Shown here: piece by piece, positions 21,655 through 40,395 of the stretch
How positions within the stretch are numbered: the stretch's first letter is position 1
How the letters are laid out: every line of letters begins with the position of its first letter
Source: Ignavibacteriota bacterium
GTDB taxonomy: Bacteria > Bacteroidota > Ignavibacteria > UBA10030
Assembly: GCA_963701295.1 (NCBI GenBank)
Contig: OY969585.1
Span: forward strand, 896,001 to 960,000
Direction of reading: 5' to 3'
Length of the DNA: 64,000 nt
Position numbers and translations under genes: made by a program
Notes under the pieces: model-generated
Database searches by the model: none
Seen by the model: only the letters and a program-made list of their open reading frames with translations
Told to the model about the DNA's origin: nothing

Positions 21655-22572
21655 TTAGGGATGTGAGAAGAGATCGCGTTTTGAAATACTTGAATCGCAA
21701 AAAGATTTCAAATGGGGAAAAGAAGCGAGGAGATTTGTAGGCGCATTCAGTCGTTTTGCCGGATGCAGCACATGTTCGACTTGACGGCCGTTCACGAGAG
21801 AGTACGCCTGACGATCATTGTGGAAAACGATGTATGTCTTATGGGCATTTGCCTGCTTGATTCTCTGAACAAGATCGCGCAGTTCTTCCTCGCTGTAACA
21901 GTACAAGTAACGATCACTGCTCTGAGTATGATTCCGAGCTTCTGCATTTCGTCCCATCATTCTGAAGTATGCAACACCATCCCACGCTAATGAGTTCAAA
22001 GGCATATGGCCAGGCAAATGCGGCAAGTCGACATTGCTGAGATTAAAACCATTTTCACGGCAGAATTGATAAAACGATTTTTCGTTCCACGATATATGCC
22101 GAAGATCAAGAAACAGCCGGTCTTCTGGAAAGAAAGTGCGCAATTTAATGAGATGTGCCTGTCGCTCACTCGTTTTATTGAAGGACGAAGGAAATTGAAT
22201 TACCAGTCCACAAAATTTATTTGCCTCACGTAAAGGATCGAGAAGCCGATGAACTGCACGTGCATCCTTCTGTGTTGCATCAAATGTATGTGTGAATCCG
22301 CGATATAGTTTGACTGTGAACACGAATCTCCGGTTCTCGCTGACATCCATAAGCCAGCGCTGTGCTTGTGCCGCAGAGAGCGATGTGTTATAGAAGGTTG
22401 AATTAACTTCAACGAGGTCAAAGAAACGGCTGAAGTATTCCAGCTTGCGGAATCCTTTCTCTGATTTTGCCGGATAGAATACGCGATTAAATGGCGGCAA
22501 CTCCCATCCGCCCATACCGATCAGAACTTCATTCGTATCTTTACTACTACCGTCAGCCATCATCGCTAGCAA
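21655..22572 (-). CDS. DUF72 family protein
   Basis: Motifs IGMGGW, VEVNSTFY, FTVK, QFPSSF, YFRMMGRN and YLYCYSEEEL. Confidence 0.85.
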   Translation of the reverse strand: MLAMMADGSSKDTNEVLIGMGGWELPPFNRVFYPAKSEKGFRKLEYFSRFFDLVEVNSTFYNTSLSAAQAQRWLMDVSENRRFVFTVKLYRGFTHTFDATQKDARAVHRLLDPLREANKFCGLVIQFPSSFNKTSERQAHLIKLRTFFPEDRLFLDLRHISWNEKSFYQFCRENGFNLSNVDLPHLPGHMPLNSLAWDGVAYFRMMGRNAEARNHTQSSDRYLYCYSEEELRDLVQRIKQANAHKTYIVFHNDRQAYSLVNGRQVEHVLHPAKRLNAPTNLLASFPHLKSFCDSSISKRDLFSHP

Positions 22573-22640: not shown

Positions 22641-23990
22641 TTACAATTTTTCGCCATCGTCGCTTGACAACGTAAGTTTCTTAATGCGGATAGATTCGAT
22701 GACATTATCCATAACTTTTCCTATTGTAAACTCTACTCCGTTTGTTCTTATCTGCTCACCTACCATAGGAATATGTCCAAGCTGTTCGATAAGGAATCCA
22801 CTGATAGATCGGATATCCATCGGTGAGAGCTCGATCGCAATGAGTCGTTCAACATCATTCGTCGTAATGCTGCCATCAACGATATATTCATCCTCGCTGA
22901 TTTTAACAACATCTGGGGTCTCACGATCGTATTCATCCTGAATGCTGCCGACAAGTTCTTCCAGCACATTCTCCAGCGTAACGAGTCCTGCTGTGCCGCC
23001 ATATTCATCAGCAAGAATTATCATATGAGTCTTCTTTTGCAGAATCGTTGTCAGCGCCTTTTCAAGCGTTGCAGTTTCAGGCAGAAACGAAGCGTCACGA
23101 AGTACTGAATTCAGTGTGAAGTCCGGCTGCAAGTGTCGATCGTACTTAAAAATATCTTTTGTATAAACGATGCCGACGATGTTATCAATGGTGTCCTTGA
23201 AAACAGGAAAGCGGGAAAACTTATTCTTCCTCATCGTAGCAAGATTTTCCTTTACGGGTACCTGCATGGAAAGTGCCACAATTTCTTTTCGCGGTACCAT
23301 AGCATGCCGTGCTTGCTTTTGATGAAAATCCATAGCGTTGAGCGCAATGCTCCTTGTCGTAGTGGAAACATGAGTATCGTGTGCAAGAATCAAGCGAAGT
23401 TCTTCTTCTGAGTGTGCTAATTCAGAATCCGTGGAGGACTGGAGCCCCAAGAACCGAAGCAGACCATTGGAAGAAGTATTGAGTACCATGATAAGCGGCT
23501 TGAACAGAAAGAAAAAAAACCGCATGGGTGAGGAAACCACAAGAATGGTTTCTCGTGCTTTTTGAATAGCGAGCACTTTCGGCGCTTGTTCCCCGACAAT
23601 GATGTGGAGCGCAGTAATGAACGCGAAGGCAACTGCGAATGAGACACCGTGGATAACGTTCTGCTGTGTCAAACCAATCCATTGAAATATGGGAAGCAAC
23701 ATCTCTGCGGCAAGTGGTTCACCAATCCATCCAAGAATGAGCGATGTCATCGTAATGCCGAGTTGAGCAGCCGATAGATATGTGATGGTATGGGAAAGAA
23801 TCTCACGTGCAATCTTTGCGCGCCAGTTCCCTTTTGCAGCCAATGGTTCGATCTGCGTGAGACGTGCCTTAACGATTGCGAACTCTGCAGCAACAAAAAA
23901 ACCGTTTAGAAAAACGAACAGGAAAATTGTGAAAATATCAAAAAAATACTGCCAAAAACTCATGCATAATCTTTCTAGTGGTCGCACCAA
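22641..23990 (-). CDS. CNNM/HlyC-CorC family membrane protein (DUF21, two CBS domains, CorC)
   Basis: Motifs NGFFVAAEFAIV, QLGIT, GEQAPK, FSRFPV and DEYGGTAGLVTLENVLEELVG. Likely start is ATG 23963. Confidence 0.92.
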   Translation of the reverse strand: MVRPLERLCMSFWQYFFDIFTIFLFVFLNGFFVAAEFAIVKARLTQIEPLAAKGNWRAKIAREILSHTITYLSAAQLGITMTSLILGWIGEPLAAEMLLPIFQWIGLTQQNVIHGVSFAVAFAFITALHIIVGEQAPKVLAIQKARETILVVSSPMRFFFFLFKPLIMVLNTSSNGLLRFLGLQSSTDSELAHSEEELRLILAHDTHVSTTTRSIALNAMDFHQKQARHAMVPRKEIVALSMQVPVKENLATMRKNKFSRFPVFKDTIDNIVGIVYTKDIFKYDRHLQPDFTLNSVLRDASFLPETATLEKALTTILQKKTHMIILADEYGGTAGLVTLENVLEELVGSIQDEYDRETPDVVKISEDEYIVDGSITTNDVERLIAIELSPMDIRSISGFLIEQLGHIPMVGEQIRTNGVEFTIGKVMDNVIESIRIKKLTLSSDDGEKL

Positions 23991-24080
23991 TATAACCGAT
24001 TAAGACCAGTCCTTCAAGGAGATCATCGAAAACGGGAAAGCCCGTGTATTCTCTTGCTCTTATGCAGGTGCTCTGAAGAG

Positions 24081-26946
24081 TTATCGGCGAACTTGCTCCG
24101 ATATCCAACTGAGATACGCTTCAAGTCGTGTGAGGAATTTGAGGTAGGAAGTAGACCAATCGTCAGGATTGTCGGGTTTATTTTTACCAAGCAATTCCTG
24201 AAATACGCGCGCTACCTCCACAGCAATCTTCTTTTTACCTTCTTCAATAGCGGCTTCGACATCTGAAGAATAATACGCATGAAGGTTGCGAATGTCCTGT
24301 CGAATGCGCCCTTCCGGACCTTTACTTGCGAAGAAAGACATATCAGTTTTATTTCCACCGGACATTTCATAAATGATCAGATTCCATTGTTCCATCACAT
24401 CACGAAATTGTATTTCATTTTCACATGTATCCAAAGGCAGTTTCCGCGATGCCTTTTCTGTGGCAAAAGAATTGCGGAAGAGCAAATCTCCACCCACAAA
24501 CTGTGATACAAGATTGACGTCCGTGCGCCAGCCAAGTACACGCTGTACACCAATGTACACTTCTCGTTCAATATTTCGTCCGGCATTAGCGGCAAGTTTT
24601 GATTCCCATGCTCGTGCCATCTTTTTCATTTGTACTTCAAGGTCATGGTCGACCTTTGCTTTCGATGCTTCCATTGGCGTTGCAGGGGCAGTTGCTTTCA
24701 GTTTCTTATGAACCAGCGAGACTATTTCCTCTCGTTCCTTTTGACTCAATTCATCAAATTTCTTTACTGCATCAGCAAATGAAGGTTGCTGTTCGTCTGC
24801 TTCTGCTTGTAGTAACTGCAGCAATCGCGTAAACAGTCGATCCTGGTAAAGAAATTTGAAGTGTGACATGTCCGCAAGAACGTACAAGTCTTCTCCAACG
24901 CACGAAGCAATCGTATTGAAAAGAAGCGCAATTTTATGTTCGCCGACCATCTTATCATCAATTGAGTGCATCGTATAGTCTACACCTGCCATCGTGGTAT
25001 CAAAGATGATCGCTTGCTTCCGCCGGTTACAGAAGCTTTGTGGTGTGCCTACCTCTACATTCTTGATTCCCTGAATCCGCAATTGGAGTTTAGTATGCAA
25101 CGTCGGCCCGATGAAAGGGAGAACGACGCCAATGTCTTGTGTACTTCTTTCAGGTTTCATCAGCGCATGTTTAACACATTCTAGAGCTTGTTTAGTGTGG
25201 AGTTCGTTGTAGAGAAGATTTTTATTCTTGCCGGAATATTGCTTACAACGAGATCGAACCTTGCTCGTGTCAATAAAATAAATTTTACCTCTCGCCTGGA
25301 GTGAAGCAAAAATATCAATTTTATCATCAAACAGCACTGAAGATATAAATAACGACAGCTTCGGTGTTGTAGAATATTGCGATTTCATAAAGATCGACCA
25401 GCGCGGATTTTTCGCTGACCACTCAAATAGCTGATGAAGTTCCGTCGTCTGTGCAACATGCTGGAATATATCGCGTTGGAGCAATGGATCGGATTCCTCG
25501 TCCCTGGAGGCAGATACCGGTTCTACTTCAAATGGATCACCTGCGATGACTAACTTTTCACGTGCTAGAGTTGACAATGCCGCAAGTGTTGGCAGGTTAA
25601 CGCGCTGTGCTTCATGAACAATGACGAGATCGAATTGCTGACCCCGAATTGCAGGATCGATCAGAGCTGCATTAATACCGGTAGCAATGAAGAGCTTCGA
25701 TTGAAGAAGTGCCTGCTCATCCACTGCAACGAAATCTTCTACTGCCTTCGTGACTTTTTCCAAACCACCCAGTTCGTCAATTCTCTTCCCGATTTCTTTG
25801 AACTCCATTTGTTCTTTTGGTGTTACCGGTGCGTTAAGTTCTATTTCCGTAATCTCGTTCGATATTGCTTGTTGGATGGACAACAAACGGTTGTACATTT
25901 GTTGTTGGCGAGTTAATTGATCGTTTGCGGCGTTAAGATCGTTCTTGGAAAATCCTTTCTTCATTCGCTCGATGAATGATGCATTTTCCAAATCGGCAAT
26001 GCTCTGATTTAGTTGAGTTTTTTCTTTAGAAATTTTTTCGATTTGCTTACGAAGATCTGCCAGGCGATCACGTTTTTCCTGCACCTTCTTATAGAAATCC
26101 TCATTGAGTATCTGTTTTATCTTAATTCGCCAGTGAGCGTTCAGGAGAGATACTCGTTCTTGAAATACCTTGCGCTTTTCCTCCTTAGCCGTTTCTACCT
26201 GATGTTCGAACGAATATTGAGCTATTGCTCCGAATGATTCCGGCGACGGGAGATCTACACGTGCTACAAACTTTGTCATTTTTACGCCAAGTTGTTCACC
26301 GATAGTGACGGTTTTCAACAGCACGGCATCTACATCATTATTGGATGGTGAAACGAACAATACCTTTCGACCGGCTTTCATATAGCTAATCGCGGCGAGG
26401 ATAAGCACTTGAGTTGTGCTGGAAAGACTGGGCCCCCACAACATTGTAACCCTGTTTTGCCAAATCTTTTTCACTGCCTCGATTTGTTCGGGCGGCGTTT
26501 TATCTTGTTTTTGCACTTCATAATTTACGATATGACTATTCTGACTATCAGCAGGATTGAAAAGCAGGAATGGGATTAACGATTTTCCATCGAGTTTCTG
26601 CAACAAATTGATGGTCGGCTTTAGTTCATGCTCGATGGTCCCATGAACAGAGAGTCTCTGGCAGTGATTCGCCAAAATCCTGAGGCAAAGCGACCGTGAG
26701 GTATTGATTTTCTATCGCAATGACATTTCCAATTACTTTGATGAGCTGCTGCTGGCCGAATGTAAATGTTGCAAGTTCCGCGGTGTGAAAAAGAATATCT
26801 TCGGGAATCTCAAATCGATAATATGTATTTCCCGCAAAAACACCAAGACGCTCTCCGCTGAACAATCGTATCTCTCGGCGAACAGTTTTTAGTTGTGTAA
26901 GTTCTTTATTCAGTGAATTTGTAAGTTGCATCAATAACTGTTTCAC
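24081..26946 (-). CDS. UPF1/DNA2-like superfamily-1 helicase-fold protein with degenerate catalytic motifs, split by one frameshift near 26640
   Basis: ORFs 26626-26946 and 24081-26675 join if one base is removed at tgg gac cat c gag. SF1 motifs occur in the correct order but are substituted: GPSLSSTT, SNNDVD, IVHEAQ, GDPFEV, SQYST, GTPQSFCN, FNTIASC. Confidence 0.75.
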
Positions 26947-32456: not shown

Positions 32457-33735
32457 TTATAGAACTTTCGCAAGATGCTCCATGAATCGTTCTGTCGCAC
32501 CAATATTTTCTTTTACTAATTTCAATGCCGCGTTTCCTGCGGTTGTCCTTGCTTTTGTATCACCAAGCAATGCACGGAGTGCTCTATAGCATTCCAGTTG
32601 ATCGTTGATAAGAAATCCACCGCCGCGACGGAGAAGTTCCAGTGCTTCCTGAGAATTTGTATGTCGCGGTCCAAAGATAACGGGAATTCCGTAGACTGCC
32701 GGTTCTAGGTACATTGTGAACACCCTGCCGGAAACTGCCTCCAACATATGCGATATCCGCATACTGGTACAATGCCATCAATATTCCAACGCTGTCGACG
32801 ATAATAATCCGTTCGCGTGAATAATCGTTCAGTAGAGAAAATCGAATAGATTTTGTCTTGAAAGGAAGCTGCTTCTCAATTGCTTCCAGCGCTTCTTCCG
32901 TTGGCTCATGCGGGACAAGAATCGCAAGAACTTTTGGATCGTATTCTAAAAGTTTCTTGATTGTCGGCAAGAGCACTTCTTCATCTTCAGGCCACGTACT
33001 GCCGGCAATGAAAATTTTTTTATCCTTCAAAATAGAGAGCGGAATGAGATGTTTCTTCTTAGCATCGGCACTACGTTGCCAAACCTGATCGTACCGAGTC
33101 TCGCCAATCTCTTGAATAAAGGGATGGGTCAGTCCAAACAGAGAAAATGCTTCAACATCTTTTGCAGAGACGGTAAGGATGGATACGAAATCGTTAAATA
33201 GTAATCGATGGAAACTTTTTATGAATGGATAGAATCTCGCTGATGATGCGCGCATTGTAGCGTTGGCGATAAAGGTTGATATATTTCTTGCACTCAGTTC
33301 CCATAAATGATTCGGCCATACATCGTACCGAACAAAAACTGCAGCTGTTGGTTGAAGCAGATCGAGGAAGCGACGAGCATTTGCTTTTGTATCGAATGGA
33401 ATATATGTAATTATATCGGCAAGTTTATAATTCTTTGAATGATCGTACCCTGATGGAGAGAAGAATGTGACGATGATATCAACGTCGTGGTATTTCTTTC
33501 GTAGAGCGGCAATGATCGGCTTTGCTTGCTCAAATTCACCCATAGAGGATGAATGGAACCATATGCGTCTTTTTGATTTCAGTCTTTTTAGATCATACTC
33601 AATTTTCTCAAACAATCCCTTTCGCCCTTGAATTCCTCGTCTGATTTTGAAGTTGAAAAGTGCAGTAAATTGTAAAAGTATCCAGAATAAGGGGATAAAT
33701 AACCAATTATAAACGATAAACCACAATTTTTTCAT
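32457..33735 (-). CDS. waaA: Kdo transferase with an apparent +1 frameshift at 32708-32709
   Basis: Motifs WFHSSSMGEF, TFFSPSG, GETRYD, AGSTW and YVGGSF. Removing one base in gta ccta gaa restores HNVLEPAVYGIPVIFGP. Confidence 0.9.
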
Positions 33736-37516: not shown

Positions 37517-38248
37517 CTAAATATTAATATCCAATTGCATCGTAAAGGTGCTCGGGATATCAGCATTGAAAACGTCCCGTGCAAAGATAACGCTCACGTT
37601 TTTTGAGAACGACCATGCAAAGCCGTAGCTCAATGCACCAAAGCTGCTTTTGCTGCCTTGGTAATCGACTGCAAGCCAGAGATTCTCGCTAATTTCGGGG
37701 ATCATTCTGTCCCATGAAAGCAAGACCCCGGAGTTATCAGCTTTACCGGTTGAAAGATCGACCAACAGTTTCTTGTTCCCAGAAAAGTACCCTACTTCAA
37801 GTCGTCCTATGACCGGAAATGTTCTCCCGATTATTCCATAGGCAATATTAAAGTCCGTTACATTTTTTAGAAACCCGAAATCAAATCCTCCGACGGCGAT
37901 CGCGGGGGACCAGTCGACGAGTACTCCCTCCGGAACACCAACCTTCGCATTCACAAGGAATGGCGATAATTGCGGTGTAAAATAATCGACGCCGATTTCC
38001 GCTTGCACAATGGAATCGGGCAACACTCCGACTGTTAAATTGAGATCCGTCGGGAATGCTGTACCGCTGAATGATTTTCCACTTCTAAAATCGTATGCAT
38101 AATTATCGATGCCAAGATGAAACGATTTATATCCTTGGAAATCAATCGACGGTATCCAAATGATAGTGGACGGGGTTGCAACAGCAGAAAGAGTACTGCA
38201 AACTAACAAAAGGACCAGTGCGACATTTTTTGAAATTCTTGCTTTCAT
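37517..38248 (-). CDS. Secreted, probable outer-membrane beta-barrel protein within the kdp operon
   Basis: Signal peptide MKARISKNVALVLLLVCSTLSAVA, amphipathic beta strands, C-terminus FTMQLDINI. Confidence 0.65.
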   Translation of the reverse strand: MKARISKNVALVLLLVCSTLSAVATPSTIIWIPSIDFQGYKSFHLGIDNYAYDFRSGKSFSGTAFPTDLNLTVGVLPDSIVQAEIGVDYFTPQLSPFLVNAKVGVPEGVLVDWSPAIAVGGFDFGFLKNVTDFNIAYGIIGRTFPVIGRLEVGYFSGNKKLLVDLSTGKADNSGVLLSWDRMIPEISENLWLAVDYQGSKSSFGALSYGFAWSFSKNVSVIFARDVFNADIPSTFTMQLDINI

Positions 38249-38292
38249 TTCTAAACTCTTTATATACATTTCATTAAGGTGAATCATCAACT

Positions 38293-40395
38293 TCATATTA
38301 CTTTCATTGCGACCATCAGCATATCGATTAGCTTGATGCCAATAAATGGAGCAATGACACCGCCGACTCCATAAATAAGCAAATGTCTTCGCAACAATTG
38401 CACGGCGCTTATTGGCCGATACTTTACTCCTTTGAGTGCTAATGGTATTAATGCGACAATAATTAGTGCATTGAAGATTACTGCAGAGAGGATAGCACTT
38501 TCCGGAGTAGCAAGCTTCATAATATTCAACATATTCAGCACAGGATATGTTGTTGCAAATGCGGCGGGAATGATGGCGAAGTACTTCGCGACGTCATTGG
38601 CAATGCTGAACGTCGTCAGTGTCCCGCGCGTCATCAGAAGCTGTTTCCCGATTTCGACGATCTCCATCAGCTTTGTCGGATTGCTGTCGAGGTCGATCAT
38701 ATTTGCTGCCTCTCGGGCAGATTGCGTACCGGTATTCATTGCTACAGCAACATCTGCCTGGGCAAGAGCTGGAGCATCATTCGTGCCGTCACCGGTCATA
38801 GCAACAAGGCGTCCGCCTTTTTGATAATCGCGGATCAATTTCAACTTGTCTTCTGGTTTTGCCTCAGCGAGAAAATCGTCAACACCAGCTTCAGCAGCAA
38901 TAGCAGTAGCTGTCAAGGTGTTATCACCCGTAATCATCACAGTTTTTATTCCCATCTTCCGCAGGTGTGCGAACCGCTCCTTAATTCCGCCTTTGACAAT
39001 ATCTTTCAAATGGATGACGCCGAGAACTTCTTTGTTTTCTGCGACGACGAGAGGAGTGGCACCGACCCGGCTGATTTCTTGTACCGCTTGCTGTACGGCC
39101 GCAGGAAACATGCCGCCCTGTTGTTCAATGTATGCTTTCATTGCGTCCGATGCGCCTTTGCGGATGATTCTTTTTCCATTTTTCCCTTCGGGTTGAATGT
39201 CGGCTCCGCTCATACGCGTCTGTGCACTGAAGGGAACAAAATGTGCTGCAATCTCATGAATATCACGACCGCGCAACCCGTACTTCTCTTTGGCAAGAAT
39301 GACGATGGATCTTCCTTCCGGAGTTTCATCAGCAAGTGAAGCGAGCTGCGCTGCATCCGCCAATCGTTCTTTTGAGATTCCCGGTGCGGGAGTAAATTCT
39401 GTCGCCATACGGTTTCCCAGTGTGATCGTACCGGTTTTATCAAGGAGGAGTACATCGACATCACCTGCCGCTTCGATGGCACGACCAGATGTTGCTATTA
39501 CGTTATGCCGGATCATTCGGTCCATGCCGGCAATACCGATTGCAGAAAGAAGTCCCCCGATCGTCGTGGGAATCAAACAGACAAGAAGGGCAACGAGCAC
39601 CGTTACGGTGACGGGTGCCCCGTGTCCGGCGACCTCAACGCTAAACAATGAGAACGGAAGAAGTGTCATGCACACGATAAGAAAAATAATGGTGAATGCT
39701 GCAAGTAATATATTGAGTGCAATTTCGTTCGGAGTTTTTTGCCGCTTGGCACCTTCAATCAAATGAATCATCCTATCCAGAAATCCACCGCCGGGCTCTG
39801 CCGTCACTTGAATGACCAGCCAATCGGAGAGCACGCGCGTGCCGCCGGTAACAGCGCTTCGATCACCGCCGGATTCACGAATCACGGGAGCACTTTCGCC
39901 TGTAATAGCACTTTCATCTACAGAAGCGATGCCTTCAATAACCTCACCATCTGCGGAAATTATATCACCTGCTTCGGCTAGGAAAACGTCCCTTTTTTGC
40001 AATTCACTGGACGTGACGATATTAAACTGTGAACTCTTTTTAGGTTCACGCAATCGTTTTGCCGTTGTATCCCGGCGCGAGCGGCGTAGCGCTTCTGCCT
40101 GCGCTTTTCCGCGCCCTTCAGCCAATGCTTCAGAAAAATTTGCAAAGAGAACCGTGAACCACAACCAGAGTGATACGAAACCGATATACCACGCAGGCGC
40201 TTCTCCGGTGCCGAGCAATGCTTGAATCCATAACGCGAAAGTGAGTACGCTTCCCACTTCCACGACAAACATAACCGGATTTCGTGCCATCAACCATGGA
40301 TTCAATTTCACAAATGAATCAAATAAAGCACGGCGAAACATTTCGCCGTTAAGTCCTAAAGGTTTCTTTAGTTGCTGCGCAGATGTCGTTACCAT
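38293..40395 (-). CDS. kdpB: K+-transporting ATPase subunit B
   Basis: Motifs [26 protein letters not shown] and [11 protein letters not shown]. Confidence 0.98.

Follow-up and report, generated by a model that had tools for sequence, protein, structure and literature searches.

The window analysed here is a stretch of 64,000 nucleotides from an Ignavibacteriota bacterium (assembly GCA_963701295.1, contig OY969585.1, positions 896,001–960,000 of the forward strand), and the gene in question occupies its positions 24,081–26,946 on the reverse strand. Its product looks like a doubly inactivated helicase–HEPN fusion fixed among housekeeping genes, because catalytic residues of the helicase motifs are lost and the histidine of the tail motif is found in 0 of the 42 genomes scored in the window's family, versus an R-x4-H motif in 14 of 14 intact relatives. 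At the locus there are two overlapping frames, an open reading frame (ORF) at 24,081–26,675 and, preceding it, a 106-codon ORF starting at 26,946. The true start is the GTG at 26,946, and of the 864 codons for which an earlier, sequence-only reading of this DNA found the main frame open, 850 are genuine, the first 14 being off-frame. The frameshift reported in that reading is caused by one extra base (Table 1), also left out in the contigs from 4 of 4 public runs, all from other strains. Because the base is absent in relatives and in these contigs, and because frameshifts in the window's assembly likewise split 7 of 168 genes orthologous to those of genome G009, it is probably an assembly error; a recent real break, confined to this strain's copy within a functional family, is unlikely. 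Among the split orthologues is waaA (Kdo transferase; 32,457–33,735, broken near 32,709), which is normally essential.

The domain layout was examined on P0003, an unbroken homologue 93% identical to the window protein, by an AlphaFold2 model made with a 72-row alignment (predicted local distance difference test, pLDDT, 86.5; predicted template modelling score, pTM, 0.86). The model comprises a helix and beta-barrel (residues 1–117), a first RecA domain carrying a coiled-coil hairpin of about 160 residues, a second RecA domain (to about residue 715), a flexible linker and an all-helical tail (792–953). It matches UPF1, SETX, IGHMBP2 and DNA2 in Foldseek, with a best E value of 1.4e-23 to 2xzo, and has the two RecA domains and the stalk/1B barrel of a UPF1-like superfamily 1B (SF1B) helicase. 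The UPF1/DNA2-like architecture, the long coiled-coil insert and the helical C-terminal domain that had been proposed from the sequence are thus all borne out. In the window protein itself, Pfam recognises AAA_11 (E 1.6e-13), and the last third has no match. The amphipathic helix at the tip of the coiled coil is more hydrophobic in the intact relatives; it may contact a membrane or a partner.

Motif states were scored in the 42 genomes against 12 intact relatives; the window's clade, one well-supported branch within one genus, makes up 7 of the 42, and genome G008 is an eighth member. All six motif strings quoted in the sequence-only reading are present in the ORF 24,081–26,675. Its statement that each catalytic residue is replaced goes too far, since several motif residues survive, namely the Walker B glutamate, the Q-motif Q, the motif Ia S-N..D, the motif III G-D, the motif V T and the motif VI N; what is gone are the lysine, aspartate, glutamine, arginines and motif V glutamate. 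The features expected of an active SF1 helicase are missing accordingly: Walker A has S-T-T for G-K-T/S, Walker B has H-E for D-E, and the arginines of motifs IV and VI and the glutamate of motif V are absent. In IGHMBP2, according to the portion of PMC3505976 used here, the motif VI arginine touches the gamma-phosphate and the motif Ia asparagine touches the RNA backbone; this asparagine is kept in 7/7 genomes of the window's clade and 27/35 elsewhere (34/42 in total).

The decay took two steps: the motif VI arginine and motif V glutamate are lost family-wide, and the Walker A lysine and Walker B aspartate in the sub-clade only, probably later. In the 35 genomes outside the window's clade, Walker A G-K is universal, the Walker B aspartate is found in 34 and the motif III glutamine in 33, but the Walker B glutamate survives in only 10, being replaced in the other 25; within the clade, the lysine, aspartate and glutamine are lost and the Walker B glutamate is retained. 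A redundant set of 147 rows agrees, with GK[TS] in 122 and the motif VI arginine in 0 among the rows listed. The sequence-only reading had allowed that close homologues with intact motifs would point to lineage-specific decay. This holds for Walker A and B, whose loss is specific to the sub-clade because same-genus homologues keep GKT and DEAQ (8 of 16 genomes), but not for motif VI, with its arginine missing throughout the family. Given the ATP site kept outside the sub-clade and the motif V arginine that has taken the place of the glutamate, the family could also be a slow or partner-activated ATPase, its lost finger replaced by an arginine that a partner, a dimer mate or motif V itself supplies. 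We regard this as unlikely, since the Walker B glutamate is replaced in most of those genomes and, in the window's clade, the Walker A lysine is absent despite purifying selection, so that hydrolysis cannot be the conserved function there.

The tail is likely a HEPN RNase domain by descent, its catalytic arginine and histidine lost. In the rare full-length relatives whose helicase motifs are all intact, only 5 columns of the 14 tails are invariant, and the R, H and D of R-x4-H-D are three of them; these tails mostly read R-N, which matches the account of HEPN in the relevant part of PMC3710099. The sequence-only reading overlooked the domain as what is probably a dead HEPN RNase, and the AlphaFold and Foldseek analysis that it suggested for this domain yielded an all-helical model, but matches to solved HEPN structures below significance. 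When the tail was modelled as a homodimer, the score was 0.42 (best control 0.00), a mark that 20 of 30 homodimers of solved structure attain, as does 1 of 23 monomers; contacts agreed at least 95% between runs, pLDDT was at least 78, and residues 107–120 of the motif helix were in contact, in a helix-swapped geometry. That the fold is kept purely for protein–protein or membrane scaffolding, with the tail a generic helical bundle and nucleic-acid binding lost, seems doubtful: the R-x4-H-D residues are invariant in every intact tail, the motif Ia Asn/Asp and motif V threonine are kept, and the new motif V arginine is fixed in nearly the whole family. A search of the ESM Atlas with P0003 residues 775–954 also returned unnamed stand-alone clusters of 143–197 amino acids, scoring 0.92–0.94 to the tail, which may represent the domain in solo form.

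Table 1. Features of the pseudo-helicase locus, in window positions
Feature	Position	Strand	Basis or remark
Whole gene: stalk/beta-barrel, pseudo-helicase and HEPN-like domain	24081..26946	-	About 954–955 amino acids in relatives; split here by one extra base
N-terminal helix and beta-barrel, putative UPF1-type stalk/1B domain (residues 1–104)	26635..26946	-	Secondary structure, Foldseek alignment to UPF1 core, tblastn
Single extra base, cause of the frameshift	26634		Absent in 5/5 close relatives; probable assembly error
Degenerate Walker A GPSLSSTT, Lys lost	26412..26435	-	K in 0/7 window-clade genomes, 35/35 other family genomes
Coiled-coil hairpin inserted after Walker A/motif Ia	25728..26210	-	Helices at about residues 246–406 of the P0003 model
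Conserved amphipathic helix at coiled-coil tip	25944..25985	-	Hydrophobic moment 0.44–0.64 in all 42 family genomes
Walker B IVHEAQ, Asp to His, Glu kept	25605..25622	-	Motif alignment
Motif III GDPFEV, Gln to Glu	25524..25541	-	Motif alignment
Motif IV SQYST, Arg lost	25368..25382	-	R in 1/42 family genomes, 12/12 intact relatives
Motif V start TPQSFCNR, Thr kept, next conserved Glu is Arg	25023..25046	-	R in 41/42, E in 0/42; E in 12/12 intact relatives
Motif VI FNTIASC, arginine finger to Cys	24900..24920	-	R in 0/42 genomes, 12/12 intact relatives
All-helical C-terminal domain, likely inactivated HEPN	24084..24572	-	Motif alignment, predicted homodimer; fold-search matches below significance
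R-x4-H remnant H-A-Y-Y-S-S	24264..24281	-	Aligned to R-x4-H of intact relatives
CNNM/CorC-HlyC gene, commonest downstream neighbour (context only)	22641..23990	-	Pfam; 24/35 family loci, 4 cut by contig ends
DUF72 gene, frequent neighbour (context)	21655..22572	-	Pfam and family loci

Trees were built from the helicase core with the coil left out (76 rows in FastTree, 31 rows in IQ-TREE). In them the degenerate proteins form a single branch (100/100) nested among intact forms, with a root on PLD/Zn-ribbon helicases that was the analyst's choice and with long branches and some weak inner nodes. Intact helicase–HEPN forms branch outside the degenerate clade more than once, and the intact state is therefore ancestral. 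These intact UPF1-like helicases with an R-x4-H tail (P0134, P0136, P0137, P0139, P0154, P0273 and P0276–P0280) are rare and scattered, and are a candidate for a new Mokosh-like defence gene with HEPN replacing PLD. A motif-intact relative of about 650 amino acids, lacking the tail, occurs in Balneolaceae; the phylum search found it in 59 of 61 genomes of one family, presumably the Balneolaceae. These tail-less relatives (L071–L077, L166–L172) often stand beside mutS and a GntR regulator. The second family with the degenerate gene (L051:8162–10969, L254–L258) has a more diverged copy, mostly upstream of glycosyltransferase genes, which keeps Walker A G-K-T and has lost motifs III, V and VI and the HEPN histidine in the members read. 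Also seen were related helicases whose tails are LRR or WD40, and compact forms of about 700 amino acids with an R-N-x3-H-D tail (P0176, P0178, P0181, P0191, P0344).

Of 36 genomes of its own family, 35 carry the gene, the lone miss being a 77%-complete genome; among 24 genomes belonging to other families in the order, 1 does. A profile search found it in 18/18 own-family genomes, 7/11 of the second family and 0/271 other genomes of the class, and a search of 400 genomes of the phylum in 17/17 of its own family, these family samples of 36, 18 and 17 being overlapping. No second copy, paralogue or active paralogue was found when the window's genome was searched, and the databases name the homologues as hypothetical or AAA proteins of Ignavibacteria/Bacteroidota. 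The ratio of nonsynonymous to synonymous substitution rates (dN/dS) has a median of 0.112 in the window's clade (18 of 21 pairs, 3 being saturated) and, over the 19 usable of 28 pairs, 0.086 in the sister clade, and is far below 1 in every domain of the gene. Against genome G009 it is 0.129, which places the gene 72nd among 123 orthologues (median 0.115, after removal of one saturated pair) and is average for the genome. As proposed from the sequence, and as a pseudohelicase should be, the gene is under purifying selection despite the loss of its motifs, and is maintained rather than decaying. That the frameshift marks the onset of loss is scarcely credible: it does lie outside any homopolymer, the G008 copy is also broken, and the window's clade has a slightly higher dN/dS than the sister clade, but frames of about 955 amino acids stay open in the other relatives, the ratio is far below 1 in every domain, the window's assembly splits even waaA, and G008 also has its PriA, HpnE and Lon split. 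At that locus (L259) PriA, an oxidoreductase, Lon and the pseudo-helicase are all split, as is typical of an error-rich assembly.

The genes that flank the family's loci are housekeeping, and variable upstream; in the window they are, by Pfam, CNNM, DUF72, Nth, a flavin oxidoreductase and PriA. The CNNM/CorC gene is downstream at 0 of 6 loci of the second family. PADLOC matched 6 of 69 non-redundant flanking proteins (from 151), namely a Type III restriction-modification pair at one locus and four single matches. Only one locus has a clear defence pair. Housekeeping, variable flanks of this kind lend no support to the idea of an undescribed system, if that means a defence locus of several genes. 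As a single gene it could still be a non-catalytic sensor or decoy in anti-phage defence, signalling to or restraining an unlinked effector. Its intact relatives do resemble Mokosh and CoCoNuT helicases (PADLOC Mko profiles give MkoA E values down to 1e-55 for them and 4e-8 for P0003), and related helicases carry swapped tails (PLD plus Zn ribbon, LRR, WD40). We nevertheless find this role quite unlikely in view of the near-universal single-copy retention, the average dN/dS and the housekeeping neighbours; moreover, an intact helicase–HEPN protein was found neither in the window's own genome nor among the 400 of the phylum. Three further observations concern the surroundings: the restriction-modification pair is inserted beside the gene in one genome (L269:12–3900); a GC-rich hairpin, possibly a terminator, lies at 24,032–24,045 between the pseudo-helicase and the CNNM gene; and a 259-amino-acid ORF without Pfam match lies at 37,517–38,296 between kdpB and kdpD.

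On balance we favour, for the window protein, a non-catalytic clamp or scaffold on single-stranded nucleic acid, RNA being likelier than DNA, which is predicted to be dimeric and would be ATP-gated in most family members and ATP-independent in the window's clade. It is likely non-catalytic because the Walker A lysine, both helicase arginines and the arginine and histidine of the tail are absent. An active helicase–HEPN fusion would have been fixed in the ancestor of the two related families, where the arginines of RecA2, the glutamate of motif V and the histidine of the HEPN motif would have disappeared; in the window's sub-clade the ATP-binding residues would have followed later. Most members would bind ATP without hydrolysing it, as a nucleotide-gated clamp, and the window's version would work independently of nucleotide and without RNase activity. 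The two RecA domains and the beta-barrel would still grip the strand, with dimerisation through the tail and a partner- or membrane-binding tip on the coiled coil. Its cellular role could be guessed to be RNA handling or surveillance.

Several points weigh against this interpretation. With Walker A G-K universal outside the sub-clade and the Walker B glutamate still present in a minority there, the family as a whole can be called ATPase-dead with less certainty than the window's clade can. Searches against solved HEPN folds and with profiles gave no significant support for the HEPN assignment, the dimer score lies exactly at the mark with one of three runs at 0.28, and the dimer contacts resemble a swap of the last helix, possibly an artefact of excising the domain. 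The comparison for base 26,634 rests on reads of other strains. Finally, the nearest abundant intact relatives, of the Balneolaceae type, are tail-less and near-core, and defence ancestry is therefore unproven; the ancestral gene may have served in defence, as Mokosh and CoCoNuT CnuH/CnuE do, or may have encoded a housekeeping helicase.

A tentative extension is that a core bacterial protein arose by domestication of an undescribed helicase–HEPN anti-phage enzyme, both of whose active sites were killed, so that it became an ATP-gated RNA clamp and later an ATP-independent one. The intact, half-dead and fully dead versions would then be a natural series for defence enzymes turning housekeeping. 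The series exists in open frames, as an intact helicase with an RxxxxH tail, a form that would only bind ATP, and one with no ATP site, with selection measured for the last two. It makes testable both the use of a UPF1 fold without hydrolysis and the taming of toxic defence nucleases into core genes.

Pseudohelicases and dead HEPN domains are each already known, but we found no earlier description of this family in the literature, supplementary tables being outside the scope, and in it few bacterial pseudohelicases (Deinococcus PriA) and none of the UPF1 type. With UPF1, IGHMBP2, SETX and DNA2 the window protein has the overall fold and motif order in common, and differs from them by its replaced ATP-site residues, long coiled-coil insert and extra helical tail. 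Judging from the parts of the published accounts considered here, which applies to all the following sources, CoCoNuT CnuH and CnuE (PMC11090510) offer, like the window protein, a UPF1-like helicase with an OB/stalk domain and a coiled-coil insert after Walker A, and also a HEPN link. CoCoNuT couples the helicase to HEPN effectors, whereas the window protein fuses the helicase to a HEPN-like domain, both degenerate; no McrBC/McrB-McrC-like or CnuE-type gene is among the annotated neighbours of the window gene or its relatives, and the gene is core where CoCoNuT is patchy. Mokosh type II MkoC (10.1101/2022.05.11.491447) is likewise a single gene with a UPF1-like helicase and a C-terminal nuclease, but its nuclease is a PLD domain and its defence needs ATP binding; the window protein instead ends in a HEPN-like tail and lacks the Walker A lysine. 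Domain searches of P0001 and P0003 found no PLD domain, and the intact ATP site of Mokosh type II is likewise missing. Deinococcus PriA (PMC4504706), MUT-15 (10.64898/2026.09.04.749402) and Utp25 (PMC9539457) use a helicase fold without ATPase for binding or scaffolding. They are single-domain inactivations, whereas here a helicase and its fused nuclease are both apparently dead, in two dateable steps. Closest to the tail are the inactive HEPN domains of MtlR and of a nematode protein, the latter fused to an inactive helicase-type ATPase domain, which have lost Rx4-6H and for which non-catalytic RNA binding was proposed (PMC3710099); compared with these, the window protein is bacterial, has a complete SF1B core of two RecA domains, and is a family-wide, single-copy gene.
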